From positions 29,769,411 to 29,818,331 of the forward strand of contig CP154954.1 in assembly GCA_039621445.1 (NCBI GenBank): 48,921 nt of DNA, in the 5' to 3' direction. Positions 23,301 to 48,921 of this stretch are shown here, one piece after another; position 1 is the first letter of the stretch; the number at the start of each line of letters is the position of its first letter. Origin of the DNA: Euglena gracilis. Taxonomy: Eukaryota. Both the position numbers and the translations under genes were made by a program. The notes beneath the pieces are model-generated. The model searched no databases. It saw only the letters and a program-made list of their open reading frames with translations, and was not told where the DNA came from.

Positions 23301-25524
23301 GCCCCGGCGGGCTTCGGCCACAGCGCCTGAGGGCTTCGAGTCGTCGACTGCCGGCCACGGCTTGGGAGGGCTTCAGCCACAGCACACGGGAGGGGACCCA
23401 GCTCCACCGTCCCGGGAGGGCTTCGGCCACAACCCATGAGGGCTTCGAATGGGCGGCTTCCAGCCACAGCTGGTGAGGGCTTCGGCCCAGGCTTGCAAGG
23501 GGGTACATCAGGGCTGCATAGAGGTAGAGGTAGAGTTCAAAGGTCTCCACCTCTATGTCAACCACCTCTACCTCTACCTCCACCTCTATGTCACCTCTAT
23601 GTCTATAAAATGTACCAAAAGTGCCACAAAAAGAGTCATAAAACACCCCATATGCTCGGAAAATGGCAATTTTGCATGAAAACCCATGCAAAACGGCGAG
23701 GGGATGACAGGACAAGAGCACTTTTTTTGGCCAAAAATGGTCAAAATTAACCGAAAATGGCATTTTTGGATTAGTTTTCAGAAATTTTGATGGAAATACA
23801 TGAGCCATCAACCTCAAAATGACTATTTTGAGAGGAGAAACAGCAAAATTTCTTCCATCAAAATTTCACCCCTAACCGCTTTGATGATGATGATCAAAGT
23901 GGTGAAGTTCACTGGTGAACTTCACCGGTGAAAAATAGCCAAGGGTGCCCCCCCCTCCCCCCTCCGGTGAATATTCGGTGAACTTCACTGGGGGTCCGAG
24001 ACCCCCAAGAGCATAATCACCCACCAACCCACCCCCTGGGGGGGACAGGGGTGGGGGCAGCTCGGGGGGACCCTCTTTTGGGGGGTCAATTTTGGGGTCA
24101 AAAAATTGAATTGAATTGAATTGAATTGAATTGAATTAAATTAAATTAAATTAAATAAAAAAAAAACCTGCCTCTGGCGGGGTAAAGGAATTTCTTAAGG
24201 ACCCCCTGCGGGGGGGGGGGGGTCCAGCCTCCGGCTGGAGAAAAGGCTGGTGGCTGGAAACGAACTGCTGCTGGACCCCCCCCCCCGGGTCAGACTTGGG
24301 GCACCAAATGAAGGTCAGCATGAGGTTCTACCAGGCATTTGCTTAAGGGATTGCAGTACCCCCCCCGGGGGGGGGGCTGGACTGCAGCTAGTCCAAATTT
24401 GGCTAGTGGGTTTTCTAGCAGACCCCCCCCCCCGGGGGGGGGTTCTGCTAGCAGGGCTAGCTAGTGGGAAAACTGTTTCCAGTGACCGGCGCGAAGCGCC
24501 GAAAATTTTTTTTGGGACCCCCAAAAATGGCCAAAAATGCCCGTTTTTGGCCATTTTTGGAAATTTTTGGAACAAAATCAGCCAAAAACCTATTAAAAAC
24601 CTCATTTTTCCTCCGGCGCGCAGCGCCGGAGGAAAATTTTTTTTCCAGTCCGGGGGACCCCCGGACCCCCCCCCCCCCCCCGGGGGGGGGGGGGGGGGGG
24701 GGGTTTACCAACCCCAATTTTTCCAGTTTCTAGCCTATTGTCTAGCCAGTACCCCCCCCCCCCGGGGGGCCTTAAGCAAAAGCCTGGGTTCTACACATGG
24801 CCACACACTGCTGCACACATGCCGACGTTGCTACCACCACCACCGGCAGCAGCAATGATGCTATGGAGTGAATATATTTCTCATCAACATTATTCATTTC
24901 ATTCCCGAGGAAATAAATAAAGCTCTGCCTGCCACTTCTTCACTTTAAAACAAACCGTGGAGGGTGAATGCCTGGAAACAATCTGCAAGACGGTTGGGAT
25001 GCCACAGGACATTGGCTTGACGGTGTGTACATAGGTATATACAGGCGATGGTGTCGCGGCCGGCATGCCGGCAGCCCGTTTAGACAGTGGGGGGAGGCAA
25101 GCCATAGCCACGTCCACTGTTGAGCTTGTAGGCATCGGGATGAAAAAGTCAACCATATGCCACCAAATAAGGCTTTAGAAGTGTCACACCCGGTGAAATT
25201 TCAAACGGTGAATTTCACCATAGGGGGGAGGGGAGGGTCCAAAATGACCAAAGTCTACTGCCTGATCTCCCTTGGTCTCTATGTTGAGAAGACCTTCTCC
25301 AGCCTTGGGCGGTGATGGCAAGGGACTGGACAGAAAAAGTTTAAAAATTAATCATGAAATTTCAAGTTTTGCGTATTGTTTCAGAGCATGCCTTTCAACA
25401 ATGTTTTGGGGACAAACCAATCAGAGGTTTTGGACCCGGGGGGAGGGGGTGGTCCGAAGGCTTACCCCCCTACCCCCTCAAAAGCAATGGTTTCAAATTA
25501 GGCAGGCCTTCCTGTACACCACTG

Positions 25525-25556
25525 CCTTTTCTTTTTCTCCCGCGTCCTCTTTTCAG
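25525..25556 (+). promoter_or_regulatory. Polypyrimidine tract plus AG acceptor 10 nt before the ATG; possible spliced-leader trans-splice or cis acceptor (copy 1 ends at 11715)
   Basis: gccttttctttttctcccgcgtcctcttttcag|gttcacaaccATG. Trans-splicing is inferred from the euglenid assignment only. Confidence 0.4.
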
Positions 25557-25566
25557 GTTCACAACC

Positions 25567-25814
25567 ATGCAGGTTCTCACACCCATGACGTTGTACTCCA
25601 ACGGGCGCAGCATCACTGTGTACGCCCCCTCCACCCTCTCCCCCACCCCTCCGGCAGGTGGAGGCTTCCCACCCAGTGGTCCACCGCTTCCGCCGTCTAT
25701 TGGGATTCCAAATGCCCCTGCAGCCGCCGCGGAAGGTTGGAATCCAGGTGCCGGCCCTTTGGGCTCTCCTGGCACTTTTCATTTGAGTCCGCTTGGCATT
25801 TGTCTCAGCTTCAG
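25567..25814 (+). CDS. Candidate first coding exon (MQVLTPMTLYSNGRSITVYAPSTLSPTPPAGG...)
   Basis: Strong upstream acceptor, ATG, Pro-rich open frame identical in both duplicate copies. 3' boundary (ag|gttccc) tentative. Confidence 0.5.
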
Positions 25815-28800
25815 GTTCCCGATGATGTCATGCATTACCTTATCTAGTAATCCATCCGTGCATTTCTTTTTGTGTTTTGAAAAAATGGATTATTTCGCAG
25901 GTTTGCACGGGTATGGGATCTCACCAGTTTTTTTTTAAAAAAACTCCGAACGGTTTTTTCTTCTTCAAAAAATGGGTCAAAATGCTTTTGTTTTGAATCA
26001 CAGCCTTTTAATCTTCAAAAATCCCTCCTCATTGAGTCAGATTTGCTATGCCGATGCCCCCAGGTGGACAAATAGCTGGCCAGCCTGCTCAGTTTACCTT
26101 AACTCCCCCATACATGGATTGTCATCACCAAATTCACATACCTACATTCATTCCCGCCATTCCCTGATTCTCGTGGTGATTGCCAATACGGGCAGTCGGT
26201 TTGAGCTTTTGATGCCTGGAAGAAGCCGAAATGGGTGAAGTGCTCTTTGGTCTCCAGCAAAACCATGCTGCGAATTGCAAGGTGTTTGTTCACCCAGCAT
26301 ACCAATGCTGAATGATACCAAAAAGATAACCAAACACTCACCCCACCGGTCCCTCTTGTTCCTTAAAAATTCGTTTGAAGCCTTCTGAAATCAGGACACC
26401 TTAAAAACTTCAGCCCGAAAATGTTTTAATTATTGTGAATTCTGCAAGCCAAGGTTGAATTGTAAATGGGACGAATTGAACCCAGCAGCGAAGGAGTATC
26501 ATTGCCTGCTTTTCTTTTCATTGTCCTCGGGGTTTGTAGGGTTCATATGGGGCTCATACCAACCCCGCCTTGGCGTATTGGATGTGGGGGGCAGTTGACC
26601 CAAGAGCCCTGTTCCTTGCGTGGGGGATCCCGAGGGTGGGTCAAAAATGTTTTAACTGACCCACCCAGTGGATGACGTTCATGAGTGGAAAAATGCCAGT
26701 TTCTAGCGTTTATCAGGCCTGTGTTGTGGTTTTTTGATCTTTCAATACTCACACTCCAGAACTTTTGGACCACATCTTCACGGTTGCAAGCCAGTCCTTG
26801 ACCCCATTACCTCCGGCAGTGGGCTTGTCAGGACCGCTCCACCTTGCACCCCCCAGCCTGCTGCCCGCCAGCCCGCCTCTCTTTGGGCCCGGCCCCGTGG
26901 CCCCCACTGTGGTCCCTCCCATCCCTGCAACGCCTGGGCCGATGGGAACCCTGTTCAGCGGGGTCCCCCCCCAGCCCCAGCCCCCTCCCATCGTTCCCGA
27001 GTGGACGTTCATTTACCCATTTCCCCATTCCGGAAAAATTCACTCCAAAACAACGTTTTCTGCTCTTTTATTTTTGTATCAGTTCACTTGGACTTTCTCC
27101 GCGACTGTGAAACGCTTCCCTCCGATGAAGTCATTATCCGTGTGCGGTTGATGGTCAATCAATGCCCAGCCCCAATCTTTTCTCCATCCCAGCTCCGACA
27201 GTGCCTGTCCTTCCAACCACAGAGTGACTCATATTTCCAAGCAAGTTAACTTCCAGGCGCTCCCCACCGCCCTTCAGGAAGAGCATGTTGCTCCTGAGAG
27301 GGACGACGAGTCTCTTGGCTACATGTTTGCTCCAGCAGGCTTTATCCCAAGCTGTGGTTGCAACAGCATTTTTTTTAAAAAAAACCAAAAGTTGTTCCAG
27401 GTGTTCAGAGTTGCCTGGCTGACAGAAATTAAATTATTAATATTATTAACATTGCAGGGGGGGAAATGCGTTGCGCATTTTTCCGCATTTTTGCGCATTT
27501 TTTGCGCATTTTTGCCAATTTTTCAAAATGCGCATTTTTTTGCGCATTTTTTGCACTTTTTTTTTGCACATTCCCCCCCGTTTTTGCACAATTTCTTCAT
27601 TTTTTGCGCATTTTTTGCGCATTTTTTTGCCCAATTTTGCACATTTTCCATTTTTTGCGCATTTTTTTGTGCATTTTTTGCCCAATTTTGCATATTTTGC
27701 ACATTTTCATTTTTGCACATTTTCCACCCAAATCACATGCTCACCGAATTTTGCCCACGTTCAACTGACCCATTTCTGTAACCAACGAACCCATTTTCGC
27801 ACTTTTTTTTTTCCACCCAAGGGACCCACGTCAAGAGAAAAACCCTTGGGTGATGATGAGGTGTGGGTACTCATCCAATGACGATGACGACACTAGGGGT
27901 TTCAGAGACCCCACATTGACACGTAACCAAGGCGGGACTCCCACTCCCCTGGTCACAAGTAAGGGGCAACCATGGCTGACATTGTTGGTTATGGTGAACG
28001 GAGAGTGACGCCTTGGTCATGCATTTTTTGGCCAAAATGCCTTCATTTCAGCTCTTTTTGGTGATTTTGGTTTAATTTTGGGTTTACTGCTGGAAATTTT
28101 TCTAAGTCCCTTTTCCCTCAGGAATGTCACAAACTCAGCGCATTTTTTTGTGCATTTTTTTTGTGCATTTTTGTGCATTTTTTTGCGCATTTTTGCGCAT
28201 TTTTTCCGAGGGCCGTCCAGCGCATCCCCCCCCCCCTGAACATTGTTAATTAGCCATTATTGATGGTGGAAAGAAATTAAACCGCCTCATGGGGTGGTCC
28301 ACAGTGAAAAAAAAAGAGACTTCCGACTTGGTGTTTGAGAAGGACCATTCACAACTGATTGTTAGAAAATACATGGTACGCTTCCTTCAATAATAATCGG
28401 AAACTGTAGTGAAAGACTTTCAGAAACGGGTCCCAAAATGGCATTAATGTGGTAAAGAGCGGTGGCGCAATGCGGAGCTATCCCGAGGATCCTTAAGTTC
28501 TGTTGAATTATTAAAATAATAAATAAACAATGAACGGAGGGAGTTTATCAAGGTGGGTTCAGTTGTATTCTGGCAGAAAATATTTCTATGTTGTTGTTCC
28601 TGTTGCTGTTTTACCTACCTTGGATAATTTGCTTCTGGAAAACTGTGCTCCAGCTAACTTGTTACATTGTCTTCTGCATGTGGTTTCTGTGGATTTCTGG
28701 AATCTGTCGTTGCGTTGTTTGTGTGGTATTCCCTCCTGCCCATTGTTGCTCACCTGTTTTTTTTCCAGTGCTGCATGTGTGTCTCGCACATTTTTCATGT

Positions 28801-31800
28801 TCGCGTTGTTTCCCTCTCTGGTGTTATCAGTAACCCCCTCCCCAATAAGTGCACGGATGTGCACTTTTTTTTAGGAACCAAATTTTGACCTCCTCGGCAC
28901 ATTTATTGTGAATGTGTCAAAATCACAAACCACGCAATCTATTTTAAAATATTTTTTCATGACATCCCCTTGTGAATTTCTTGTGATTTGGCCAAGTATT
29001 GTGCCCCATTCAGTACTTCAAAACCGACCAGAATGATTTTGTGGTACTGGCTTCAATTGGAATTACCTTTTTGGGTTGCGCATCAATGTTCTCCTTTTTA
29101 TGCACGTTTTCGGATCGATTAATTGGAGGAGGATGGGGGTGCAATGGTGCACATCTGTTGGGGGGGGGGGAAGTTTGATGGTCGGTCCAGGGGGGTGATA
29201 GGTTGCATGTTACAATGCATGGGGAATGCATGGGAGCAGGTTTTCAGAATCAACATGTTTAATCATGTTTAAATCGAACAATTTAGCTTTATGTGTAATT
29301 GTGAATAAAAATAGAATGATAACATGTGTAATAATTAAGAAGTTATAAAAAGTGCACTGGTGATGAACGTTGCAAACTTGGAATTTGCCATCCTGATGCC
29401 ATTTTTCTTTCATGAGACACTCTACTGGCTGCAGCAGCGCCACCTCCCGTCGTAGCAAGTGGCCCGGTTTACAGCCTGCCTCCACTGCCAGTTGCCCCTG
29501 CAGTGCCATACACCGCACCCTTCCCCGTTGGGCTCCCCGTTCTGGGCCCTCAGGCCCAGATATCAGCGGCCGGGTACCGCCTCCAGGAGCTCAACACTGG
29601 GACCAACCTCTACATCTCCAACCTGCCCGACCGCATCACGAAGGAGGGGCTGAAGGAACTCTTCTCCGCCCACGGCACGGTGATGAGCTGCCGAGTGGCC
29701 CGGAAGCAGGGCCAGAGCCCTAGCCATCCCATTGCTGACCACGGTGACTGCCCCCCCCCCCCCACTCCAAGGTGGGCTCGGCCAGAAGTGGCCAAAGCGT
29801 ACACCCGACGAAGCCGGAAATGTCTTTAACAACTTGCCAGAAAAATGCACCACTTTTGCGCCATTTTTTATTTACATGGGTGGATAGCAGCCCATTTGAG
29901 GGTGGGGGGTCTGGAGACGTCTGATTTTTTTTGAAGTGGAATTCCACCCTGAACTGAGTCAACAATGGCATGATGGTATCGGCTTTGTGCAATACACAAC
30001 ATCAGGTCCATTGCGTGTGTGAATGCATGTGTGCGTGTGTGAGTGGTGTGTGTGTGGGTGTGCAATGTGTGTGTGACAGTGCCCAGTCCCGGGGGATACC
30101 TCTCTGGACAAGCGACTCAGGGACGAAGGGACTCAAGACTCAGACCCTGACCCCTGAGCAAGGTGAAGGTGCCAGGCCTTGAAAAGGAGTACCCCCTTTT
30201 TTTTTTGGACCCGTGGACCCTGTGTGCCGACATTTGCCCCCAGGGGGTGGTGGTTATACCTAGCAGAGTATTTCTAAACCCCCTCCTCCGTGGCAGTTGG
30301 ATCAAGCCTGGTGCAGCGTTTCTCGTCACGTGTGATTTATGTGTTGATTACTGATTCAACCAAGTATGCACCACCCTTTCTTGGTGGGAAGAACTGCCAC
30401 AAAAACGACCAACAAGAATGTGTAATGCCACTGTTTCTTGAGAGTATGGCAAGCACAATCAATCAGAAATCGTTGGCAAAGCTAGCAGAGCACCAGCGAG
30501 ATGAATTCATCAACCAAGCGTCTTTACACCCACTTCTCTGGGTATTTCACAGTGCATTTACAATTTTGACTCTGGAAAGGGGGCACCAAGGACCGTGACA
30601 ATTAGTTCCTGGGGGGTTTGGAGCAGACACTCTTGTGGGAAACTCCCCTCAAATTGTAATTTCACATGGTAATAATGAGAACACAGGAAATGTAGTTGGA
30701 AGATATCCGCACAAAAGTGCTTTGCTTCTGTGCCCCCTCCACTTATTTTGACACCCCCTCCACTTATTTTTTAATGTTCTTTTTTAAGGCTTCCAAGACT
30801 GTTAAAGGTTAATTTTTTTTAAGACGCCTTAAAAAAAAAACCTGGTACCTCCCGTCGACGGGGACATTATTAACCCCTTGGTGAAAAAGAAAGTGATGGA
30901 AAGACTAACGTGATGACATCGTTGTGTTTCCCCCCTCCGTGTGGTGCAGTGGGATCACGGTTTTTCCCAACGTTGTGCAGGGGGGGGGGAAATTGATATC
31001 AATTTTTTTCCGCATTTTCCGCATTTTTCCGCAATTTCCGCAATTTCCGCAATTTTCCGCAATTTTCCGCAATTTTTCCGCAATTTCCGCAATTTTTCCG
31101 CAATTTTTTCCCATTTTTTTTCCGCAGAATTTTTTTCCCACCACCGAAGATGGAAGATGCAATGAGTTCAAGCCATTCTTCAAATGGATCAACAGGTGTT
31201 CTATTGTGTTTTGTTGTTTTTCCCCCCCCAGTTTACCAATTTTTCTCACAGGTGCACCACTGGTTACAGAATTGGGTGCGTCCCACCTGTGCAAAGAACA
31301 TCAAGCGTGTTGATTTGTGCTCGCCTGCATCGACGTGGGTGTTGCGGTGTTCTGAACCTCACAATTGAAAATTTTCTAAGTCCCCTCAGACAGAAATGTG
31401 TATACCCGATATCAATTTTTCCGCAATTTTTCCGCAATTTCCGCAATTTTTCCGCAATTTTTCCGCAATTTTTCCGAAGGCCTCCGATATCAATTTCCCC
31501 CCCCCCTGCGTTGTGATCCTTTGGCCCCCTCCCAGGGATGGCCCAGGCTGCGGTGACGGCGATGAACGGAATGATGGTCGATGACAGCCAGGGAGGCCAG
31601 AGGTCACTGCATTTCCCCACATTGTTGTCCCTGGATTGAAGGGGGCAGGACCCGAGGGATGGCGGTCTGAGGTCAAGGTTCGATCAACGGCCTAGGGGGA
31701 ACCCCGTCCCGTGCCTCCTCCCCGTTCTGTGCCTGGAATCAGAAATAGAGACACCAGTGGTGATCTTTGCTTCGGACTGCCAAGGTAAATCAATTAGGAA

Positions 31801-34800
31801 TGTCCAATAAATTAGGCAGGAACGTCCCCGTTCCTAACCACCCCCCTGCCCTTCCAAAGCCCCTACCCTCACCCGGGTTCGCGCCGTACCAAACCCGCTT
31901 CTGACCTCGGGGGGGGGGGGGCAGTTGTCTGCCCCTCAGCATGGCCCCCGCCACCCTGCGGGCGGCCGGTTCATTCGGGTGAAGCTGGCGGACCACGACA
32001 AGGACAAAGGGGTGACCAGCCGGCCGTCGTCAGACCTCTACATCTGTAACCTGCCCGACTCCTGGTCGTACGCGGAGCTGCACTCCACGTTCGCCCGCTA
32101 CGGGAAGGTGTACTCCTTGACGATGTTCAAGGACTCTGAGACAGGTGCCTTGCTTGCGTGAAGATTCACGTGTCTGATCACTCAGCCGAATAAAGAGGCG
32201 TTGATTTAAATTCTTCCCATTTCCTGCAATGGGTTGGTGGAAGATTCTCAACCAAGTTTCAGGGATTAAAGAGTAGGGGTGATTTGTTTGAATTCGGTGA
32301 GATCTGGGAGTATTTAGTGGGGAGGGGGGGCAGGGCAGGGGTTTTGGAGATGCGGTAACACCAAAGCGAAAGTGAAACCAAGAGCCACCGAGCCCATGAG
32401 CAGTCTTGCACCAGAGCTGCAGCATTCTCCATTCCTTCCATCTGGTGGTTTTTTTGAATCTCCGATTTGTTTCCCCTTCCTTCCTCTGCACAGAGTTGTA
32501 AATATCATTTCTGACCTGCAATGGCTGGAGATACATTTCCCTGGTCCATGCCATGCGTGCTCAGCTGGAGGAGTGGTGTTCAAGCTAACAATTTTTGCAT
32601 ATTTTATCATTGTCATTATCATTTATTATTTTCGTATTGGAAAATGTGTGGTTTTGCATTCATTTTGTGTATTTTTGACCTCTCATTTTGCATTTTTTTT
32701 TTGCATTTTTGCAATTGCATTAAACGTATGTGCATGTTTTTTTTTTTTGCACTGTTTTGCCCCTTGCGTTGCTTATTTTGAGCTGCCTGGTTTCACCCCC
32801 CCCCCCCCGGTGTTCAGGGGGCAACATCGGCAGCGGCATGGTGCGTTACTCCTCCACCGCGGAGGCCACAGCAGCCATCCAGGGCCTCAACATGCTGCAG
32901 CTGCCCGGGATGGACCGCCCCATCGAGGTGAAGTACGCCGAGAGCCGGGCGGAGAAGGACCGCCGCGTCGCGAACCGCATGGACAACGAAGAGGAGGATC
33001 AGGTCGATCCCTTCAAGTGACTACCCTAGTCGGAGGTTCCCTTCAGACCCGCCTCCCTCGCGCTTGTCTCGGCCCGCCCACATTGCTTTCATTTAACCAC
33101 GAGGTCCAAAGAATGAATCCACTCAGGCATTTCTTGTGTACTTGCCTGGCTCAGTAATCGACCTGACCAGGTTTGGCATTTTCCCCCACTCTAGCCACTC
33201 TTCTAATTCCTCCTTCCCTTCCAGGGCGTAGCTTGAGAAAGTTTCCCCCCCCCCCCCGGTCCAGCCAGCAGCCTTTTTCCAGCCAGCAGCCTGTTTCCAG
33301 CCCCGGACCCCCCTCCCCCGCTCAACGAGGTTTATTTGTTTCCAGCCGCCCTCTGCAGCTGGATGGCAACTGATTTTTCGCCATTGGGTGCAAAACGGGC
33401 AAAAGTGGGTCAAAAATGGGCAAAATGGGTCAAAATGGGCGAAAATGGGTCGGAAAAGGGCTGGTCATGGCAAATATGGTCAAAAATCGCATTTTTCTTG
33501 CATAATTGGCAGTTTTTTTGGACATTTTTTTGCGATTCCGATTTTTTTGGTACCCGGTTCGACCCCAGGTCGGGCCCAGTTCCCGCCCGGGACCCGGCGG
33601 AGGGGGGGATCAGCCAGCAGCCTTTTTCCAGCCAGCCATAATTTTCCAGCCTCTGAGCTTGACCCCCCTGTGTGCACTGTGGCCGTTTTGAGCTTGCCCC
33701 CCCCTCGGGGGGGGGGAGTCGATGAAAAACGCCCTGCTCCCTTCCCTGGTATTTTGCTTTAACCAAAATTTTATGGTGAGATGGCGCCACTTCCATCTCT
33801 TTCAAATGTTCACTCCTTGCAGCCACTCCCCCAGCCGGAGCCCCCTCGGTGGAATGAATACCAATGGCCTCCAAGGCTGTCCGCCCCCCAGACAAAAAGG
33901 TCCGAAGCAGACAATTTTTTAAGCACTGGCCGACCCCCCCCCCCCCCCGGGGGTGGGTGACTGGTTTTTTCGGAGGGGGGGTCGCCTGGGGAGGGGGGGG
34001 TCGGCAAAAAATTACTAAAGTGACCCGGCGCCGAAGGCGCCGGAAAATTTTTTTGGGCCTTTTTTGCATGTTTTGGGTCAAATTTCCTTTGGATTCCAGA
34101 GTGGCCGACCCCCCCCCCCCCCGGGGGGGGAGTGTCTGACTGGTTTCCTGAAAAAAGTGACTGACTGGTTTTTCAAAAAGTGGAGTGACCCCCCTCCCCC
34201 CCGGGGTCGGTAAAAAAATTGTATGGTCCGAAGGTGGGAAAGGCCCATACGATGTCCAATGTGATGCCCATTGAAGATTCTGAACCCCTCCCTAATGAAG
34301 GTTTGGGGAGGGTCTTTGACATCAGCCCCCTGTGATATTTACCCCATTGAAATCAGGGTGTTTGATTTTTTTTTTTACAATGGAAATGCCCTCTGTGAAT
34401 AAGGCGGTAGCTTGTGTCAAATATGCCCAAGTTCGCTCCCCACCCCTACTCGGAACCTAACATTGCATTACATTGCATTACGTTATGTTGCATTGCATTG
34501 CATTGCATTGCATTGCATTGCATTGCATTGCATTACATTACATTCATTACATAGCATCATATCACATCATATCACATTTCATTACATTACAATACATGGC
34601 ACTACATTACACGTACATTTCAACCCCCCACACTCGCCAACTTGTCATGCGGACAGTTTCCTGGCTCCCGTCGTTGCTGCTGGTTTCCGTCATTGTGGCT
34701 GAGATACCTGGACCTGGACGAACGGCCTTGAACCCAGCCCACCCAGCGGCCGCCCCCCGCCGAGAGCAGCAGCAGCGGTGGTGGCAGCAGCGGCCAGCTG

Positions 34801-37800
34801 GCCACCCCGCCGAACGTACCAGCGCAGGACATGGCGGCGGTGCAGGCGTTCTCCCGCATCATGAACCTGAACGCAACAACAGGCAACGCGAAGCAAAGCC
34901 TGATGTGCCTGAACAATGGGCTGCAGCTCCGGTGTGCAGATGCCTCGCTTGCAGGTGTTTCTTGACCTTACCTTACCTTACCTTACTTTACCTTACCTTA
35001 CCTTACCTTACCTTACCTTTCCTCACCTTACCTTACCTTACCCCCTCGATGGAGGTCCAGCCAGCCAAAACCTTTTTTCCAGCAGCTACCAGCCAGGCTG
35101 CGGACTCGGGGGGGGGGGGGAGCTGAAATGGGCTTTACCTCAAAAATTTTCTGTGCAAAGCTCCAGAAATTATTTAAAAAGTTTTTTAAAAAAATTGTCA
35201 AAAATGGCATTTTTGAGAAACTTGTGAAAATGAATTGCAAATTATTTATCAAATCATATGAATTTTGGCTATTCTTTTCTGGTGGAAAGCAGAAAAGAAG
35301 AAAGTTTTTCTGGCTCCAGAGGGTTGAACCCCCCCCCCCCAGCCCGGGGTGGTCGGACCGCCCCCTCCCCTCCCCCGTGCAAAACCAACGCTCGCTTACG
35401 GCCCTGCCCGAGGGTGTCTGGCCAAAATTATACTTTGCCAGAAAAATCGACCCTCAAAAATACTGCCAAAATGGGCAGAGAACCTTAGGTAATCTTTCAG
35501 CATCCTGTTTACAACAGGTTTTGAAACCACTGGGATTTTCTTTGGCTAATGCCAGAGGAAAAAAATCCCTGAACACAACAGCAAACTATCAAAGTGGGTA
35601 CAGCAAACATTTTGCGTAACACAAACGCCTCCGTTATTTGGCCTTCTCTGCCACAGGGGTGAAGTGGACCCAGCCGCTGATCATACAGATGACACCAGCC
35701 AGGACCTGATGGGCGTGCTTTGCTCTGGTAGGGGGTACCCCACATGTCCAGTAGAAATTTTCACATATTCCAAAACCTCTGCAGGGGATTTTGCGAACGA
35801 AAAAGGAAAGAATATCAGTTTGGGGATGTACATAGGCAGGCCATTGTTTAAGCGGAAGAGGACCCCACCCTGCACCTTGGGAGCGGGGTCCAGCCATCAG
35901 CAGTTTTATCTCCAGCCAGCAACTTTTTCCAGCCCCTCCTCCCCTGGACGCTTTTTTTTTCAAGCTGCCTTTTGGGCGGCTGGCAGCAGGGGGGGGAATA
36001 TGCAACTTGCATGATTTGCTTTTTTTTACATAATCAGGTTTTCCCGAAATTTGCTTTTTTTGCATTTTTTTTGCATTTTTTTTTTGCGTAAAATATTTTG
36101 CCTGGAAATTTTTTTTGTAGTTGGTCGCCATGTCATGTTTTGTCTCTGGTCCCTCTGCAGTTGCCTGGCGTCTTTGATACTTTCACCCTATTAAAAGGCA
36201 GCTTTGCAGAGGAGTGAATGTTTTCCGAGTTTGTTTTTGTCATTTTTATTGATGTTCAATGGTGACCTGGAGGGACGATTTGCTTAGACTGAACGTGCAG
36301 GTGCCATTCATGTTGATTTTCAAAGCTTCAGTGCTTGCCATTGTCTTCCAGGAGGTCTTCTTTGTGAACCATTGACAGGTGTTTACGGATTTTAGGCAGA
36401 AAAACTCTATTATATTCCAGCCTTTTCTCAGGGGTTTTATGCAAGTTGCATTTTTTTTGCATTTTTTGCATTTTTTTGACTTGCATAATTCGAAGGGCCA
36501 AGTTGCATACCCCCCCCCCCCTGCTGGAAGGTAACGGAATCTCTGATTTCGGAGTGCAAAAAAATGGCGAAAATATGGGCAAAATAAGTCAGAATTTGGC
36601 TGGCCGGGGCATATTTTGGGTCAAAATAGGTTTTTTTTGGAGGGCATTTTTGCAGGTTCGATTTTTTTGTACCCAGTTCGACCCTGGTTCAGGTCCAGTT
36701 CCAGCTGGGGGAGGGGGGGGTCAGCAGCCTTTTCCCAGCAAGCCCAAACTTTCGGTCTGGACCCCCAGTCAAGGAAGGGAGGGAGGCACCAGGGGGTATT
36801 GCTTTAAGCAGGGCGGTCCATAAGGGACGGGATTTTTTTTTTTTAGTTAAGGACCGCCCCCTTGAGGACCGCCCCCCCCAGCACCAATTTTTGGACCCGA
36901 AAAAATTTTTCCGGCGCTTTTGGCGCCGGGTGTTTTTTTTTTGACCCATTTTGGGAGGTCCCCCCAAAAACCCCTCAAAACCCCATTTTTTCCCCACCTT
37001 CCAAAGATTCAAAATTTTCTCAACAATTCATTTTGAGAGTTTTTAGAAGCAAAAAAAAGCCATTGAAAATCCAAAAAAACTTCCAAGAGAAAAATTGTCA
37101 GTAAAATTCTGACTGTGCCAAAATTTGGTCCACTTTTTTTGACCTTCGTTATTTTCCACCCCCCCTCCTAAAAAATACCAAATTTAACCCTGAAATTGTT
37201 AAATTTTTTTTGTGAAAAAAATGTGGTTTTCCATCAAAAAATCATGTATTTTGGGCTCATTTTTCAAAAAAACAGGGTCGACCCCCCCACCTCCCGGTTG
37301 GGGGGGGGGTCGACCCCCCCCACCAGGCCTTCCCGTTCTGCCCTGGCCTGCCCCGAAAAAGACCATACACACCTCTCCCCTCTTCCCCTGGAAGTTGGCA
37401 ACGAGCCCAAACAATCACTTAGTCATTGATCAACCCCCTCCCTTGCACATTGTGTAAATTGCCCAAAAATTTTGACGCTCTGTAAACGGAAGAGGAAGCG
37501 GAAAACCGCTTCCAAAAAAAGGGCTGTTTTTTTGAGGTTCCTGGAAGAGGTCTGGCCGAAAGTACTGGGTCATTTGGAGATGATGGGGGAAACCCTGTGA
37601 AAAAAAAAAACAGAAGAATGCAAAGAAGCGGTTTTCTGCTTCCTCAACCCAACAAAATAATTTTTGAACAGATCACTACAACAGAAGAAGAATACCACTG
37701 AACAATCTGAATAGGAAACTACACTGCATTCACTGAAACATCAAACAGTCAATGTTGTATGTTGGTGAGTTGTACATTTTACATGTTGCAACAAAAGACG

Positions 37801-40800
37801 GTCAAAGTTGGCCAAAATTTGGTCAAACTTCTTTGGCCAAATTTTTGGCAATTTTGGGTCATTTCGGTTAACTCTTGGCAAAATGGTGGCCAAAAAAGTG
37901 ACAAACAGTCAGGCCAATTGGCCGAAAGTACCAGCGGATTTTGGATTTTTGGAAGGGGGGTAAGGTGGTAGGGGGGGGGGTCCTCCCACCCCCCCCAGTT
38001 TCGGAAGGGTGTCCCCCCCTCCTCCTCTGCGGAGGCAAAAAAAAAATCGCGCTGGGAGTGCACTTTAGGACTTTTTTTGAGGCTAAACATGAAATTTTGG
38101 CAAAATGGCCAAAAATGACCATAAATCGGGACAGGTGGAGAGTTGTCAGAAAATCAATATACTGTTAGATAGTGCTTTTTAAGGGCTTCAATTTAGGTAT
38201 TAGTCATTTCTTTTGATTCTCCACCATTTTTGAGAAATTTCAGAAAAATTGACCTTTTGACCCCCCAAAAAGCGGCCGAAATTTTCGGCGACCGAAAACT
38301 GGAGATGGGCCGGCCCCCCCCCCCCAGTTTCAGAAGGGGTCCCCCCCCCTCGGAGATTCCCATACAACCCTGCCCCCCCCCCCCACCTCTTCCCGTATTT
38401 CCGGGAGCACCAATTTTTGTACCCCGAAATTTTTTGACCTATTTTGGGACCCGAAATGGGGATCCCCCCCCAAAACCCCGCAAACCCCATTTTTTTTTCA
38501 CACCTTCCAAAATTTCAACATTTCTCAAAATTTTGACTTTGAGAGGTTTTTGAAGCAAAAAAATGCCATTGAAAATCCAAAAAATTCCCAAAGAGAAAAA
38601 CTCTCAGTAAAATTCGAATGCTCCAAAAGTTGGTCCTATTTTTTGACCTGCATTTTTTTGATCCCCCTCCTAATAACTAACAATTTTCAACCCTAAAATT
38701 TTGGAGATTTTTTTTTTTTGGTGAAAATGTGGTTTTCCATCAAAAAACGATGTATTTTGGGTTCATTTTTCAAAGTAATTTTCAAAAAAGTTCCCCGACC
38801 AAAATCCTTATTTTTCGGTTGAAGTGTATTGGGACAGAATTTTTTTTGCTTAAGGACCGCCCTGGCTTTAAGGCGTAAATTTTCAGATTTTCAAGGTTTT
38901 TTAAGGCGGGTTTTAAGGGTTTTAAGGTTCCCAAAGGCATTTTTCAAAATTTTAAGGCGTCTGTTTTCCAAGGGAAGTCCACCCGGCATCAAACGTCCAA
39001 AATCCATCCAAAAACGAAAAATTCGTAAACCTCGTTTTTTCGAGTTTGGGTGGGTAGAGAATGTTCCAGCGATGCCAGAAATTCTTTTTTCCCCTGGAGT
39101 TGGCTTGTTTTGCCCAGATTTTGCAAGCTCATTTTCTGCTTGAATTTCAAAAAATTTGCCAAATGATTTTCTTTTAAGGTTCTTGAACGTTTTTAAGGCG
39201 TTTTGGCCAAAAAACTTAAGGCTTTTTTAAAGGTCTTAAAAAAAATAACCCCTGGGAGGCACCCCTCACCTACAGCCAGGCCCCCTCCTTACATTAAACC
39301 GTGTCCTCCACCATTCAGCACACCAGTTGCAACTTTGTGGGAACGTTTTAAAGAATATGAAAACTGCTTTGCACGTTGAAATGAAAATGCATGCTTTCAA
39401 GCGTTCCTTTTTCAGATTTGTCGATTTCATCTGATGCATTTTCCTCTCATGTTTCTTTGTAAATAAGGATTTGGCATTCAAAGCAAATGAATAAAATATA
39501 TCACAGAAATAATTGAGCGAAACTGGGGCGTCGCTAGCAGCCTTTGCCCCCCCCTGGGGCCGGGAACTGGGACCCCATTTTTTTGAAATCTGACAGATTT
39601 TTGCCCCAAAAGTACCCAAAATCGCATTTTTTGTGGTCAATATTGGTGGGAGGTAATTTCTCTGTTGACCTTGAAAAGGCTCACAATACAGAAACTGCAG
39701 AAAAATAGGGGAACTGCAAGAAATGCACTCAGGATTACTGCAGGGCCACAGGGGGATAAGAAACGCTTCCAAAATTAAATCCAGGCTGGATAAATCAAAA
39801 TTTGAATAGCATAGTGCTTTTCTACCAGAGTTCAACCCCGGAAGGTGGGAGGGTCCGGACTCCTTCAAATTGTCATTGCCCCCCCCCCCTTCTGGCTCTG
39901 GGGTGTGGCATTGGGGAATGAGGCGGCCTCGGGCCTGCCAGGGAGGTGTCAGCGGCGGAGGACTACTCGAACCCGCCGGGGTTCCCCAGCCGAAAGCCGG
40001 GCAAAGGGGGCGGCTCACTGTGGGACCGAGTGCAGGGTGTGTACCCCTCAGCCTCGCCCTGCTCCTGTCGCTGCTTGACGCTGTCCCAATGCCCGCCCTG
40101 TCCCAACCCCTGTCGGTCGTGGTGGCTCTCCTCGTTAGGGGCTTCGTCTTTAGACAGGCTGGATTTCAAGTGTGGATAACCTGGGTGCCCCAAGGTCAGA
40201 CCAGGGTGCCCCAAGGCACCCTGACCTGATCCTCCCATCTGGGGGGGGGGTTATGGTCAATCTGGTTCTCTTGGTTCTCTTGCGCTCTGACACCTCCTGG
40301 ACTCTTATCTTGTTGCTGTTCTGGCTCTGTCGTTTGATTGTGGCTGGGCCGCATCCACTTTTTTCCAGATTGTTGAACATGCCAATTTCGTGTTCCCCCC
40401 TCCCTCACCACTAGCGTCAATGCTAGTCCCGCACAGTTTACAATTAGAAGCAATATATTGAAGTGTAACCCTGGGTTTTGAAAATCTGCTACAACCTCCA
40501 ATTTCCCCCTCGTTTCAACATTTTCCCCATTGTCATCAGGTCTGGCTCACCCCTATATATGACTAGGCACCAGCAAATATTCACAACACATCCTGAACAG
40601 CTTCCGACATCGGAGCACAGTTTTTTCCTGCACCGTCCCCTGTAGTACAGCAGCCACCACAGCACACCGTTTCCCATCGCACCACAATCACATCCCCCAT
40701 CAAGGCACCACGCAACACATTTTAGTTCAGGGAAAAAGATGCCTCCTCATGATTCTGTTCTGGTGTGCTGCCAGTCCTCTCTTTGCGCTGAAATTTTTTT

Positions 40801-41971: not shown

Positions 41972-42007
<36 letters not shown>

Positions 42008-42500
42008 TGGGTGTGGGTGTCCGCACGCCTGTGTGTGTGTGTGTGTGTGTCTGCATGCATGCGTGCGTGTGTGCGTGCGTGCGTGTGCATGTTTGCGTGC
42101 ATGCATGCATGGATGTGCTTGTGTCTGTATGTGTGTATGTGCTTGTGTTTGCAGGTGATTGATGTATGGGAAGGTCTATCTGTGTGCATGTGTGTGTATG
42201 TATTGGCATGCATGACCTCATTTGACACCTAAGCATGTGTCCGTGGGCTTGTGTGTCTGTGTGCTGGATTATTCTTGTTTTTGCCTGAACCCAGCCATTT
42301 TCGCCCAGGCGCAGAGAGGCTTCAATGGATCGTATATGTGCCCAACACTGCGCAGTGTGCCAAGGCAAGTTGACAATTACAAAGCCAGTTGACAGTTTTC
42401 CACGCTGCCCTCCACCCCCCCCCCCCCGCCTACCTACCCGCCTGCCTCCCGCCTCAGGGCTTGGCGGGGCAAGCGGAGGCCGCGCCGTGCCGCATATTGA
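25567..42500 (+). CDS. Multi-exon gene: Pro-rich N-terminus, two tandem RRM domains, low-complexity C-terminus (ELAV/Hu-CELF-RBMS-like RNA-binding protein)
   Basis: Join of 29417-29721, 29978-30005, 31536-31585, 31964-32144, 32818-32996, 33823-33868, 34736-34931, 35657-35727, 39829-39870, 39926-40036, 41801-41972 and 42458-42500 is phase-consistent and stop-free. It gives RRM1 (TNLYISNLP...SPIGFVQYTTSGMAQAAVTAMNG...FIRVKLA) and RRM2 (SDLYICNLP...GSGMVRY...AAIQGLN...PIEVKYA). Exons upstream of 29417 are only partly resolved. Confidence 0.85.
26760..26962 (+). CDS. Candidate Pro-rich N-terminal exon (…TVASQSLTPLPPAVGLSGPLHLAPPSLL…GTLFSG)
   Basis: cactccag| acceptor; sequence conserved between duplicates, which diverge shortly after the ggg|gtcc donor. 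Phase linkage to neighbours unresolved. Confidence 0.45.
27455..28238. mobile_element. CAGGGGGGG...CCCCCTG MITE with 7-bp TSD aacattg (copy 2)
   Basis: aacattg at 27448-27454 and 28239-28245; intact CAG and CTG termini. Confidence 0.9.
29417..29721 (+). CDS. Exon: Pro/Ala-rich segment plus first half of RRM1 (…TNLYISNLPDRITKEGLKELFSAHGTVMSCRVARKQGQSP)
   Basis: RNP2 motif LYISNL; frame open back to a stop at 29413-29415, so the start is approximate. Confidence 0.9.
29722..29977 (+). other. Nonconventional (non-GT-AG) intron, CAT/ATG stem
   Basis: 5' agcCATcccattgctgac pairs with 3' gtcaacaatggcATGatggt; CAT at +4..+6, ATG at -8..-6; Y|R at both junctions; removal builds RNP1 SP|IGFVQY. Confidence 0.85.
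29978..30005 (+). CDS. 28-nt exon encoding RNP1 of RRM1 (IGFVQYTTS)
   Basis: atc ggc ttt gtg caa tac aca aca tca g|gtcc; phase 1 matches acceptor ccccctcccag|gg at 31535. Confidence 0.85.
30978..31508. mobile_element. CAGGGGGGG...CCCCCTG MITE with 7-bp TSD cgttgtg, in a GT-AG intron
   Basis: TIR cagggggggggaaattgatatc / gatatcaatttcccccccccctg; cgttgtg at 30971-30977 and 31509-31515; (TTTCCGCAA)n arrays. Confidence 0.92.
31536..31585 (+). CDS. 50-nt exon, RRM1 helix 2 (GMAQAAVTAMNGMMVDD)
   Basis: Typical RRM AxxAxxxMNG motif; not shown in the ORF track. Confidence 0.9.
31586..31963 (+). other. Nonconventional intron, CAG/CTG stem
   Basis: gac|agcCAGggagg ... ccaccCTGcgggc|ggc; CAG at +4..+6, CTG at -8..-6; gives MNGMMVDD|GRFIRVKLA. 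Confidence 0.9.
31964..32144 (+). CDS. Exon: end of RRM1, linker, first half of RRM2
   Basis: GRFIRVKLADHDKDKGVTSRPSSDLYICNLPDSWSYAELHSTFARYGKVYSLTMFKDSET; donor g|gtgcct. Confidence 0.93.
32818..32996 (+). CDS. Exon: second half of RRM2 (alternative end 33002)
   Basis: tgttcag|gg acceptor in phase 1; GGNIGSGMVRYSSTAEATAAIQGLNMLQLPGMDRPIEVKYAESRAEKDRRVANRMDNEEE. Confidence 0.9.
32997..33170 (+). other. Candidate nonconventional intron abutting a GT donor
   Basis: gatCAGgtcgat ... atcgacCTGaccag|gtttgg; 10-bp perfect inverted repeat tcaggtcgat/atcgacctga in the +4/-8 register. Confidence 0.6.
33823..33868 (+). CDS. 46-nt exon (PLPQPEPPRWNEYQW)
   Basis: ctccttgcag| acceptor in phase 0; frame joins the next exon through a stem-closed intron. 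Confidence 0.7.
33908..34225. mobile_element. hAT-like MITE with 8-bp TSD gtccgaag, nested in a nonconventional intron
   Basis: TIR cagacaatttttt / aaaaaattgtatg; gtccgaag at 33900-33907 and 34226-34233. Confidence 0.88.
34461..34615. repeat. (CATTG/CATTA)n pentanucleotide microsatellite
   Basis: Directly visible. Confidence 0.95.
34736..34931 (+). CDS. Exon (QPTQRPPPAESSSSGGGSSGQLATPPNVPAQDMAAVQAFSRIMNLNATTGNAKQSLMCLNNGLQLR)
   Basis: GC3-rich open frame; donor cg|gtgtgc in phase 2 matches the acceptor at 35656. Confidence 0.75.
34965..35041. repeat. (CCTTA)n pentanucleotide microsatellite
   Basis: Directly visible. Confidence 0.95.
35657..35727 (+). CDS. 71-nt exon (GEVDPAADHTDDTSQDLMGVLCS)
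   Basis: ttctctgccacag|g acceptor and g|gtaggg donor; phases match both neighbours. Confidence 0.65.
35987..36523. mobile_element. CAGGGGGGG...CCCCCTG MITE with near-perfect 7-bp TSD (ctggcag/ctggaag)
   Basis: TIR cagggggggaatatgcaacttg / caagttgcatacccccccccccctg; flanks 35980-35986 and 36524-36530. Confidence 0.82.
36790..39254. mobile_element. hAT-like element (outer), CAGGGG...CCCCTG, 8-bp TSD ggaggcac
   Basis: ggaggcac at 36782-36789 and 39255-39262; termini cagggggtatt / aataacccctg. Confidence 0.88.
36809..38864. mobile_element. hAT-like element (inner, nested), CAGGGCGGTCC...GGACCGCCCTG, 8-bp TSD gctttaag
   Basis: gctttaag at 36801-36808 and 38865-38872; perfect 11-bp TIR; contains further related repeats (~36890-37270 resembles ~38410-38780). 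Confidence 0.9.
39829..39870 (+). CDS. 42-nt exon (EFNPGRWEGPDSFK)
   Basis: gcttttctaccag|ag acceptor in phase 1 matches the donor at 35727. Confidence 0.6.
39871..39925 (+). other. 55-nt nonconventional intron, CAT/ATG stem
   Basis: tgtCATtgcccc pairs with ggggaATGaggcg|g; removal shifts into the frame that stays open through the next three exons. Confidence 0.65.
39926..40036 (+). CDS. Exon (CLGPAREVSAAEDYSNPPGFPSRKPGKGGGSLWDRVQ)
   Basis: Same frame as ORF 39946; donor g|gtgtgt in phase 1. Confidence 0.65.
41801..41972 (+). CDS. Exon (GVLPGPADIGNEGPQALYKGNPQQAQPPTQGNPEDWGGPPMPSGVFNDINKDNNSDN)
   Basis: ccctctgcag|gt acceptor in phase 1; donor tg|gtgtgt at the start of the GT microsatellite. 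Confidence 0.68.
41973..42200. repeat. (GT)n / (GCAT/GCGT)n compound microsatellite
   Basis: Directly visible. Confidence 0.95.
42458..42500 (+). CDS. Putative last coding exon (WAWRGKRRPRRAAY*)
   Basis: cctcccgcctcag|g acceptor in phase 2; TGA at 42498-42500; basic KRRPRR tail. Confidence 0.6.
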
Positions 42501-46265: not shown

Positions 46266-48921
46266 AATGCTCTCCCATTCAGCTGTCCCATTACCCCCCC
46301 CCCCAATACAAGAAACTGGTTGCTTATATTTGGGTTTCCGATAATCGGCTCCAGGGGTTGCTTATATTTTGAATTCCCTGATTTCGGCCGTTTTATGCCA
46401 TTGAAAATTCCTTCACATCGTCCAATCAGGGGTTGTTTTTATTTGGCTGTCCGCCGAAAATCGGCCAAAGGGTTGCTCATATTTTAGGTGTTGATGATAG
46501 AGGGGGTCGCTGAGCTCTTATCTCTTCAGAGTCAGAGCAAAGGTTACCGCCGGAGAAAAGTTGGGCAGAACGGTGTTTTTTAAAAATCGATTTTTTTTTA
46601 AAATATTCCGACAATGAAGCAAAATGAAAGGAAATGTCCGGAGACCAAAAATAAAGCCCTTGGAATGCCCTATCCAACAATGCTTTACTTTTTCACGAAC
46701 TCCCCACCAAGCCCAAGTTGCGGCCATTTTCCCGCCAATTTTGGCCATTTTGTACTGTTTTGGCTGGCTGTTTTCGGGCCATTTCAGGTAAAATGAATCG
46801 AGATTTTCAAAATATCTCCAAAGTGGATTGGGAACCTAAAATAAAGTCCCTGGGACCCTCAATCGCCCTGTATAGCCGCCAGGGCCAGTTGGACTCCTGC
46901 TCCAAATGCTGCCCGTTTTGGCCATTTTCGGGCCATTTCAGGTTCAAAAAAATCGAAATTCAAAATATCTCCAAAATGTTCGGGAATCAAAGGAAATCAC
47001 CGGGGACGTAAAATAAAGCCCCTTGGGACCCTCCATCGCCCCGCATAAACTGCCAGGGCCAGTTGTGCGCCTGAGCCGGGCCGGGCTGGGCCACCGGTCG
47101 CGCCGGGGCCGGGCCTCCGGCCGCCAGGTCGGGCTGAAGATCCGCCCTGGTAGCCAGAGGCTTCAAACATCTGTTGCGCCATGGCATCATCAGGCACGCA
47201 AAGGGCTCAGCACTACACAAAACCTGGTTTCTTATATTCGGGGAGGTCACTGTCTTTTTCTCAACAACTTGTTTTGGGGGGCTTTATTCCTTGGCAAATT
47301 GCAAACCATTTGCTAGAAATCCTTTTCCATTTCAGGGCATTCCTTTTCTGAAGATTTGTTACCCGAGGTTTTCTTGAGCCCAGGGTCCCCTTACATAAAG
47401 TTAGGGGCAGCCTGGCAAAGCCGCTGGACCGAAAAAATTTCGGCCTGCCAGCTGTCCGACCCCCCCCCCCCCCCCCAGCCAACCCCCCCAGGGGTTCTAG
47501 CCAGCACCTTTTTCCAGCCTGCTGGAACCCCCGCCCAGGTTCTTAACAAACACCCTTTTTGTTTACAGGTTTTTTTCACTGAACATTTCCAAATACATAT
47601 GCATGCACGCACCCACTCACACGCCCACGCACACACCCATGCCCGCCTGCCCACACACCCACACACACATACACACATTTTGCTTCTCACTGGCTTTCAA
47701 GGCACCATCCCCGTTCAATATCCTCACTGCGGGGTGTTGCAGTTGCACATATCATAGAACTTATCATGGCTAATCATATTGCTGTGGTAAGAGGATTGAT
47801 GGTTTGCTCTGCTGAGGTGGAGGGCAAGGGATGTCAGGGCTCCTGTCCCCTTCGTGTTTATATTGCTGTTTACATCTTACCTCCCCCCTCTGGTGTGTTA
47901 CGCTGCAGGGATGGACCCAGCCTGTCCATTCTCTCCTGACATTGTTTGAAGGGCGTGACTCTTTCAGGTTTGCCCCTCCACCATTTGCAACCCCCTGGGC
48001 GGTGTGATCTAAGATGGGCATTGGCCAAGGGAGGTATACCTCCTTTGGAAAATTTACCCCCTCCCCCCCGAAATGGTCCAGTTCGTCCTGTGAGATTTAA
48101 ATTTTATATGACCCAATCTTTCTTTCAAGTCATTTTTTGTTCTTCTACAAGTGACAGAGGTCACAAGTGTAGAAAAAAACATGGCATAAAATACTGATTT
48201 TTTTTGTTCACCGAGGTTTCTTTTGGTCTATTGGTGCAGACGTTTTGTATTTCACCCTCCAGAAAGTTCTAAGTATTACGCCTCAAAAAGAGTTTCTGGG
48301 CATCGGTTGACTGTATAGGTGTTTGCTGTACACCCCTGCAAATTGTGACGGGGAAGGCACTGGGACGCGGACGCAGTTTGCCACCAGGGCGGCAACAACA
48401 CTGCAACCATTCGGGACCCTCCCCCCATTTACAAGCACCTGGGTTAAATTTTAATCAGTGGGACTGCCCCGTGGGGCCCACCTGCCGTCAAATTAAACCA
48501 CATACACATAAAGACAATATATCTCCATTGACATGGACATAGATACAGGCCCTTAACGAGAAAAGGGCATTTCTGTTTGACACACATCGTCGCACAATGG
48601 ATGGCAGTTAAACTCATATGCTGTTTTGTTCATGCCTGCATTTGCACCATATGGGACCAGCCTTTTTTTTTAATTCCCCCCCCCAGAGCGCGCATGCCTG
48701 GGGGATTGGGTATGGGTTCTCGTGCAAAGCGCCAGAAATATATTTTTGAAAATGCCTTCAGATGGCCCGAACTTTAGAGGGCAGCCTCCCTTCCCCAGGG
48801 ATGGATGGGAAGCCCTTCGGTTTTCGGTTTTGAGGCAGGTGGCAGGTCCGGACCCCCCACCCGCCCCCCTTTGCCAGGTTCCAAAAATAGCGAAAAATTT
48901 TCTTCCGGCGCTGTGGCGCCG

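Follow-up and report, generated by a model that had tools for sequence, protein, structure and literature searches.

In Euglena agilis, nonconventional introns account for 71.8% of 649,158 introns, and their limits obey a rule of distances: a CAG lies 3 nt past the donor site and a CTG 8 nt ahead of the acceptor (PMC12501133). For euglenid nonconventional introns in general this has been written as the code 5'-N3CDG-/-CH'GN5-6|R, with pairing required past the CAG and ahead of the CTG, and with a purine required at the opening of the next exon (PMC12501133). Knock-in experiments have established the rule: insertion or deletion of 1 bp in the 5' spacer destroys function, the 3' spacer tolerates one additional nucleotide and performs progressively worse with -1, +2 and +3, and synthetic 50-bp introns that follow the rules get spliced (PMC12501133). 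The introns are excised as full-length circles (PMC11282704, PMC12501133). The present text concerns a stretch of Euglena gracilis DNA (48,921 nt of contig CP154954.1, that is, 48.9 kb, N-free and of moderate G+C; hereafter the window), in which a gene for a protein with two RNA-recognition motifs (RRMs), carrying two predicted introns of this kind (NC1 and NC2), is found together with transposon-like elements that begin with CAG, mostly end with CTG and are flanked by 8-bp direct repeats, and it asks whether the 3 nt and 5 nt of the splicing rule and the 8 bp of the duplication are connected.

The proposal that nonconventional introns descend from MITEs (miniature transposable elements with inverted repeats) is already in print (PMC3935182, PMC6221363, PMC11170887, PMC12621601, PMC12501133), and a review labels their CAG/CTG as terminal inverted repeats (TIRs) and their junction repeats as resembling target-site duplications (TSDs) (PMC11282704); a first-pass annotation of the window was thus right to say that a transposon origin had been discussed (PMC3935182, PMC11282704, PMC12501133). 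Two questions are explicitly left open in the literature: where do these introns come from, and why is the rule asymmetric, with 3 nt on one side and 5 nt on the other? In the openly accessible text searched we nowhere found it said that 3 and 5 add up to the length of an 8-bp duplication, and we found no link of these introns to hAT-type elements and no actual euglenid transposon family with CAG...CTG ends.

Outside the euglenids, the closest described systems are the introners. In Micromonas pusilla and Aureococcus an inserted short non-autonomous DNA transposon becomes an intron, with inverted ends and with a target duplication that supplies part of what exact removal needs (PMC11282704, on Huff et al. 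2016). Those introns are removed by the spliceosome at GT/GC-AG, and a 3-nt duplication provides a splice-site dinucleotide (PMC11282704); unlike them, the removal proposed here would be non-spliceosomal and measured by distance from a stem, and the duplication would supply both spacers. The introner elements of Amoebophrya are likewise comparable, being non-canonical introns with end-pairing inverted repeats of 8-20 nt, with direct repeats that overlap the borders and with a MITE-like structure lacking a transposase inside. They differ in that their direct repeats are of 3-5 nt and variably placed, the host is a dinoflagellate, the elements are strain-specific and there is no mutation-tested ruler (PMC7789003).

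Elements with CAG ends and target-site duplications

All CAG...CTG pairs at a spacing of 40-6000 bp were collected if their terminal 12 nt on the two sides agreed at 9 or more positions, which gave 1223 pairs in the window, and their flanks were compared with a control in which the left flank was displaced by 9-21 nt (4891 comparisons). Flanks identical at 8/8 positions were found in four of the 1223 pairs and in none of the 4891 displaced controls, as opposed to 7/8 flanks, which were found in three pairs and in four controls. The four pairs amount to three independent insertions: a 13.8-kb tandem duplication carries one insertion in both of its units, at 10503-10943 and at 24332-24786. Exact repeats abutting the ends measured 8 nt in four pairs and 7 nt in two, with none of 6 nt or of 9 nt or more, and the longest exact repeat in 12,230 displaced registers was 6 nt. 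These counts show that the elements and their duplications are real and beyond chance. Two further candidates were dropped: the repeat of 3586-3776 / 17412-17601, at first sight an 8-bp case, is actually at least 14 nt long and lies amid tandem repeats, and 8560-8693 and its copy (7/8) were set aside on similar grounds. A search of metagenomes with the end pattern (16 nt) matched 119 stretches, all of them taken as chance because none had further similarity to the window.

The three elements singled out in the first pass (33908-34225, 36790-39254 and 36809-38864) were confirmed in their coordinates, their CAG starts and CTG ends (ATG in one of them), their inverted ends and their perfect 8-bp duplications. 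The third is a nested insertion, set 19 bp in from where the second starts on its left, and this second element measures 409 bp once this guest is removed. Counted from the tip, the inverted ends match without interruption for 2, 6 and 11 nt, respectively, and over the first 20 positions there are 14, 14 and 16 matches. With the CAG/CTG ends left free, the repeat of 36790-39254 reads 10 nt (GGGAGGCACC) and that of 33908-34225 reads 9 nt, and these longer readings are one-base chance extensions. To these the scan adds 24332-24786 as a fourth perfect case, and 33222-33736 is probably a fifth: its 7/8 flanks alone are near chance (4 of 4891 controls), but its tip CAGGGCGT is common with 36809-38864, and an internal stretch of it resembles 36561-36753. 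This makes five independent 8-bp-duplication elements in about 35 kb of unique sequence, one of them CAG...ATG and the others CAG...CTG, all with a CAG start, with perfect tip runs of 2-11 nt and with 10-16 matches among the first 20 positions.

What do these ends have in common with those of the introns? The tip CAGGG is found in three of the five 8-bp elements and in both frame-supported introns (NC1 and NC2), as well as in a second, poly-G family described below, and the element tips CAGGGCGG, CAGGGCGT and CAGGGGGT resemble the stems of these introns (CAGGG.../...CCACCCTG). The motif pair of the published code, a CDG near the 5' end and the complementary CH'G near the 3' end, is present in four of the five elements and in NC1, NC2 and a third stretch of intron geometry, 32997-33170, and all three of these have a purine opening their downstream side (A, G and G, respectively). 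End-duplex energies range from -9.0 to -27.4 kcal/mol in the 8-bp elements, from -22.7 to -37.6 in the poly-G family and from -9.5 to -17.6 kcal/mol in the three predicted introns.

Internally, the inner element 36809-38864 contains a 310-bp duplication (36960-37268 / 38465-38774), and the right arm of its host is rich in TTAAGG, with 8 of the 20 copies of the window at 38850-39216; these repeats have the look of binding repeats of the subterminal kind. The window has seven copies of a G+C hairpin, CGGCGC-N3-5-GCGCCG with an A/T run after it (at 10658, 10785, 24487, 24614, 34026, 36912 and 48906; CGGCGCCGAAGGCGCCG in 33908-34225), six of them inside 8-bp elements that are otherwise dissimilar, and the hairpin may be a module with a function common to these MITE-like elements. 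Both the TTAAGG repeats and the hairpin fit MITE-like derivatives. The seventh hairpin (48906) lies in what appears to be a further element, starting at about 48836 and cut by the end of the window.

The two exact 7-nt cases are members of a single family, the poly-G one, whose ends are CAG(G)n...(C)nCTG and which has T-rich short repeats inside. Long G/C runs make up its tips, its interior holds arrays built of TTTTTGCGCA or TTTTCCGCAA, and it numbers three insertions, of which 35987-36523 has 6/7 flanks in the 7-bp register; the copy of 27455-28238 in the other duplication unit, near 13633, has kept the same flanks. The CAG...CTG elements of the window are therefore of two classes, an 8-bp class of five independent insertions and a 7-bp class of three.

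Which transposons are these? The view taken in the first pass, that 8-bp TSDs and CAG-initial TIRs are typical of hAT elements, fits the descriptions of that superfamily, whose general features include short inverted ends and 8-bp duplications (PMC3942097, PMC3260210), and judged by these marks the elements are real, hAT-like, non-autonomous, MITE-like cut-and-paste transposons. An exact 8-bp duplication flanks 33908-34225, 36790-39254, 36809-38864 and 24332-24786, with 7/8 at 33222-33736, and the 8-bp elements have short TIRs (10-25 bp) that start with C/TAG. The ends of Ac/Ds are C/TAGGGATGAAA and its duplications are of 8 bp (PMC3260210); the likeness to it and to other hAT elements (PMC3260210, PMC3942097, PMC10368747) extends to the duplication length and to the short C/TAGGG inverted ends, and further to short non-autonomous derivatives and subterminal short repeats. 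The hAT element Hermes prefers the target nTnnnnAn (PMC10368747); here position 7 is A in four of the five elements and position 2 is T in two, five sites being too few for a comparison. In contrast to Ac/Ds, the ends diverge past CAGGG, and the 7-bp duplications of the sister poly-G family are atypical of hAT. Membership is judged from the end and duplication features because no transposase was found: the 10 longest (86-147 aa) of the 49 open reading frames (ORFs) in 36790-39254 with a length of 45 aa or more gave no Pfam match, which weighs against the reading favoured below. A hAT transposase that mobilises such elements, with BED and dimerisation domains, would be encoded by an autonomous relative having the same ends. 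Merlin elements, with 8-bp duplications and a conserved terminal 5'-GG, have been reported in E. gracilis (PMC8101967), and membership in that group is ruled out, since all the elements start with CAG, not GG, right after the duplication.

The 3-nt and 5-nt spacers and the 8-bp duplication

The intron geometry read from the sequence in the first pass, 3 nt + CAG...CTG + 5 nt, is the one published and tested by knock-in (PMC12501133), and it fits both frame-supported introns. The arithmetic built on it is correct as well: an insert with CAG...CTG ends and an 8-bp duplication gives an intron of 3 nt, core and 5 nt, and with one cut 3 nt ahead of CAG and the other 5 nt past CTG a single TSD copy is left. 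If the duplicated target is written as T1-T8 on each side, the rule would place a cut just past T5 in both copies, left and right; the mRNA would retain T1-T5 and T6-T8, which is the original target as one 8-mer, and the excised piece, T6-T8 plus the element plus T1-T5, would hold one full 8-mer copy when circularised. The element would carry the full cis-code in its own inverted ends, and because CAG...CTG is its own reverse complement removal would be scarless in either orientation. The remaining condition would be a purine at position 6 of the 8-mer. Elements of this sort are likely to be the raw material of many nonconventional introns, and the more complete proposal, in which they supply the introns and the 3+5 ruler became matched to the 8-bp footprint, through selection either on the splicing system or on the insertions that survived, is the one that we favour, with moderate confidence.

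The strongest outside support for this link comes from intron 4 of gapC, a recent gain that is confined to ACOI 323, a strain of E. agilis, and has all the features of the class; its direct junction repeats are of eight nucleotides, longer than those of any other intron studied there (PMC4770533). A second line of support is the junction consensus. If a duplicated 8-mer is cut between its positions 5 and 6, both junctions should show the same consensus (pyrimidine|purine), and the published bases agree, intron +1 and exon +1 on the one hand and exon -1 and intron -1 on the other being the same positions of the 8-mer: in 55 intron sequences, which are not independent because they represent six strains and 13 intron positions (a point that weakens the support), a purine is found at exon +1 in all 55 and at intron +1 in 51, and exon -1 and intron -1 each have a pyrimidine in 49 (PMC4770533). 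Furthermore, A is frequent both at exon +2, which corresponds to T7 (43/55, PMC4770533), and at position 7 of the duplications. Summed over NC1, NC2 and 32997-33170, flank identity is 12/24 in the 8-bp register as against 1-9 in eight other registers, a weak signal with n=3, and the 5/8 of 32997-33170 is the highest of the nine registers tested for it.

With respect to the described introns (PMC3935182, PMC4770533, PMC11282704, PMC12501133), the likeness consists in the CAG at +4..+6, the CTG at -8..-6 and the paired ends, and the difference is that CAG...CTG elements with 8-bp duplications are seen here, but outside exons. With the published MITE-origin proposal the reading shares the inverted-end transposon as source, the TSD-like junction repeats and the eight-nucleotide repeats at a new intron; in the accessible text of that proposal, unlike here, no transposon family is named and no duplication length is given. 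The link is thus a sharp and testable refinement of a known hypothesis, plausible and partly supported. If the ruler is indeed the target duplication of resident CAG...CTG transposons, introns in this lineage could be gained in one step and without a scar, there would be a simple cause for nonconventional introns being so abundant in E. agilis, and the introner principle would reach beyond the spliceosome to another kind of splicing machinery; the existing knock-in assay and the existing genome and transcriptome data would allow it to be tested.

The most serious competing explanation, which we consider rather unlikely, is coincidence. According to it, the 3-nt and 5-nt distances would be the geometry of the splicing enzyme on the stem (compare structure-guided RNA endonucleases), the 8 bp would belong to the transposase, CAG...CTG would merely be a good start for a helix, and the elements would be MITEs of the ordinary kind, lying in introns or between genes and having no particular tie to intron birth. 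A number of observations weigh against the reading that we favour, most of them falling on the side of this alternative. The 3' spacer tolerates 6 nt, and so the ruler is not strictly 8 (PMC12501133), and short junction repeats are abundant at conventional introns too, being found in 84.4% of all introns (PMC12501133). For the three elements of the related poly-G family, which duplicates 7 bp, the 3+5 rule would leave a 1-nt deletion; 33908-34225 ends in ATG and breaks the 3' CH'G motif; and position 6 of the duplication, read on the + strand, is a purine in only two of the five elements (A in 33908-34225 and 36809-38864; the other three have C, T and T). Flank identity at the introns predicted to be old is only 3/8 (29704), 4/8 (31586) and 5/8 (32997), so that the weakness already admitted in the first pass was reproduced. 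Every element with a perfect duplication lies in a non-coding context, none of them in a convincing exon, given that the ORFs of the empty sites have a G+C content at third codon positions (GC3) of 0.41-0.66 versus 0.69-0.81 in the RRM exons, and the RRM frame ends ahead of the elements in 33222-39262. Like junction bases at both cut sites could also be an enzyme preference, and one number matching out of roughly ten possible sums is not rare. Nonetheless, coincidence has to accommodate several independent features that concur (the terminal trinucleotides, the inverted ends as the required pairing and the sum of 8), together with the repeats of the sole documented new intron (PMC4770533) and the A shared by exon +2 and duplication position 7.

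The claim that transposons act as intron generators is partly supported: the five 8-bp elements, the gapC repeats and the shared junction consensus speak for it, and the lack of any exonic copy in the window and the 7-bp family against it. The copies in the window are read as bystanders in non-coding DNA, and not as introns in the making. No filled/empty pair was found between the units of the tandem duplication, the largest indel being of 78 bp.

Double-strand-break repair, in which a staggered break is filled with foreign DNA, the junction repeats are repair footprints and transposons play no part, is improbable. It is the interpretation that the authors of the gapC study gave to the eight-nucleotide repeats, by analogy with Daphnia and in view of the high break-rejoining activity in euglenids (PMC4770533), but it offers no reason for a CAG start, a CTG end and inverted ends in the inserted DNA, nor for a repeat of eight nucleotides, and transposons with exactly these properties are present in the window. 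Still less probable is the reverse direction, in which the elements would be mobilised introns, circular intron RNA or DNA having re-entered the genome so that non-exonic CAG...CTG stretches are dispersed former introns: nonconventional introns are indeed released as full-length circles (PMC11282704, PMC12501133) and a 3+5-cut circle would hold 8 extra nucleotides, but a re-inserted circle would bring the 8 nt of its old host instead of duplicating the new target, the flanks are identical within each element and different between elements, and an element nested in another, the duplications of both being intact, is what cut-and-paste insertion typically leaves.

Returning to the favoured reading, in which the elements supply introns, a bolder version can be put forward only tentatively: euglenid non-spliceosomal splicing might be an RNA-level precise-excision system for hAT-like MITEs, whose asymmetric 3/5 ruler was fixed since it adds up to the 8-bp footprint left by the CAG...CTG transposons that dominate. 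If so, exonic insertions in either orientation would be phenotypically silent whenever target position 6 is a purine, which would explain the nonconventional majority in Euglena, the shared junction consensus and the introns that are new in single strains.

The two-RRM gene and other features of the window

The region is the 3' half of a gene for a two-RRM protein, followed by DNA downstream of it, in a nuclear genome of euglenid type; a mixture of GT-AG and nonconventional introns with long G and C runs is the usual style of euglenid nuclear genes. The gene is on the + strand and introns interrupt both motifs (Table 1). Three ORFs match the Pfam family RRM_1: 29416-29826 (profile positions 1-38, E 1.2e-07), 31838-32158 (positions 1-36, E 5.2e-04, 20.3 bits, just below the cut-off of 20.7) and 32724-33017 (positions 39-66, E 0.067). 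For the first of them, a search for homologous proteins gave no longer homologue. Joining the five exons yields an open frame of 256 codons with two RRMs of normal length, and requires four introns, two GT-AG and two non-GT-AG, both of the latter being 3 nt + CAGGG...CCACCCTG + 5 nt followed by a purine. The predicted limits rest on reading frame and domain continuity, and the end coordinate of NC2 was placed in the present analysis. NC1 and NC2 both start with CAGGG and share the 3' octamer, and are otherwise without detectable similarity or blastn match.

Table 1. Predicted exons, introns and transposon-like elements of the window
Feature	Position	Strand	Evidence and remarks
Fourth perfect 8-bp case, CAGGCATTTGCTTAAGG...CTG	24332..24786	.	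Duplication GGTTCTAC
Poly-G family element	27455..28238	.	7-bp flanks AACATTG at 27448-27454 and 28239-28245
Exon, first half of RRM 1	29416..29703	+	5' limit provisional; RRM_1 positions 1-38; open frame in spliced model
Predicted nonconventional intron NC1, AAG-CAGGG...CCCTG-AACTG then A	29704..29956	+	Frame and normal-length RRM restored; flank identity 3/8
Exon SQQWHDGIGFVQYTTS, RNP1-like part of RRM 1	29957..30005	+	Spliced model
Predicted conventional GT-AG intron, C-rich tract ahead of AG	30006..31535	+	Spliced model; holds element 30978-31508
Poly-G family TIR element, 23 perfect terminal nt	30978..31508	.	7-bp repeat CGTTGTG at 30971-30977 and 31509-31515
Exon, end of RRM 1	31536..31585	+	Spliced model
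Predicted nonconventional intron NC2, AGC-CAGGGAGG...CCACCCTG-CGGGC then G	31586..31963	+	378 nt, frame kept; flank identity 4/8
Exon, first half of RRM 2	31964..32144	+	Pfam RRM_1 positions 1-36; spliced model
Predicted conventional GT-AG intron splitting RRM 2	32145..32817	+	Pfam halves on either side are profile 1-36 and 39-66
Exon, second half of RRM 2	32818..33020	+	Frame ends with TGA 33018-33020 if no further splicing
Intron-geometry element GAT-CAGGTCGAT...ATCGACCTG-ACCAG then G	32997..33170	+	9-bp perfect stem; flank identity 5/8
Probable TIR element CAGGGCGT...ACGCCCTG	33222..33736	.	Flanks TTCCCTTC (33214-33221) / CTCCCTTC (33737-33744), 7/8
TIR element, CAG...ATG, 318 bp	33908..34225	.	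8-bp duplication GTCCGAAG at 33900-33907 and 34226-34233
Codon-biased ORF, 77 codons, candidate exon	34732..34962	+	GC3 0.78
Poly-G family, third member	35987..36523	.	Flanks CTGGCAG / CTGGAAG, 6/7 in 7-bp register
Outer TIR element CAGGGGGTATT...AATAACCCCTG, CAG...CTG, 2465 bp	36790..39254	.	8-bp duplication GGAGGCAC at 36782-36789 and 39255-39262
Inner TIR element CAGGGCGGTCC...GGACCGCCCTG, CAG...CTG, 2056 bp	36809..38864	.	8-bp duplication GCTTTAAG at 36801-36808 and 38865-38872

The element 32997-33170 overlaps the end of the frame and may be one of two things, a nonconventional intron or a TIR element of small size; spliced or unspliced, the frame stops within 9 codons, and splicing alters the last few codons only. 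Further downstream, a GT at 33003 and an AG at 34737 could join the RRM frame to the ORF 34732-34962, which has no Pfam family and no relatives among 1.84 billion representative proteins searched exhaustively. This ORF may represent a C-terminal exon that the RRM gene has in this lineage alone, may be part of another gene, or may be noncoding.

The tandem duplication (938-14722 / 14712-28639) has units of 13.8 kb that are 98.1% identical (13,434 of 13,692 aligned positions). It contains apparent 5' exons of the RRM gene, an ATG at 25567 and a proline-rich ORF at 26738-27148, with copies near 11730 and at 12900-13310, so that the upstream unit may hold a truncated copy of the gene. A 248-bp unit at 2005-2252, with ends GGGGTTGGTAC...GTACCAACCCC (13/14 match), is flanked by two copies of CCAAAGG (7 bp), and 15775-16025 is its degraded copy in the other duplication unit.

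Other repeats are scattered over the window. The poly-G insertion 35987-36523 lies in a repeat at 35885-36766, which has ends GGGGTCCAG...CTGGACCCC, lacks a flanking duplication and is related to the interior of 33222-33736. Short GGTCCAGCC...GCTGGACC hairpins occur at 24215-24282, 33258, 33610 and 35057. Two TG/CA-rich, microsatellite-like arrays, at 41973-42106 and 47590-47677, are in inverted orientation about 5.5 kb apart, and there are also short arrays of GCATT (34460-34530), ACCTT (34970-35040) and GAATT (24100-24150).

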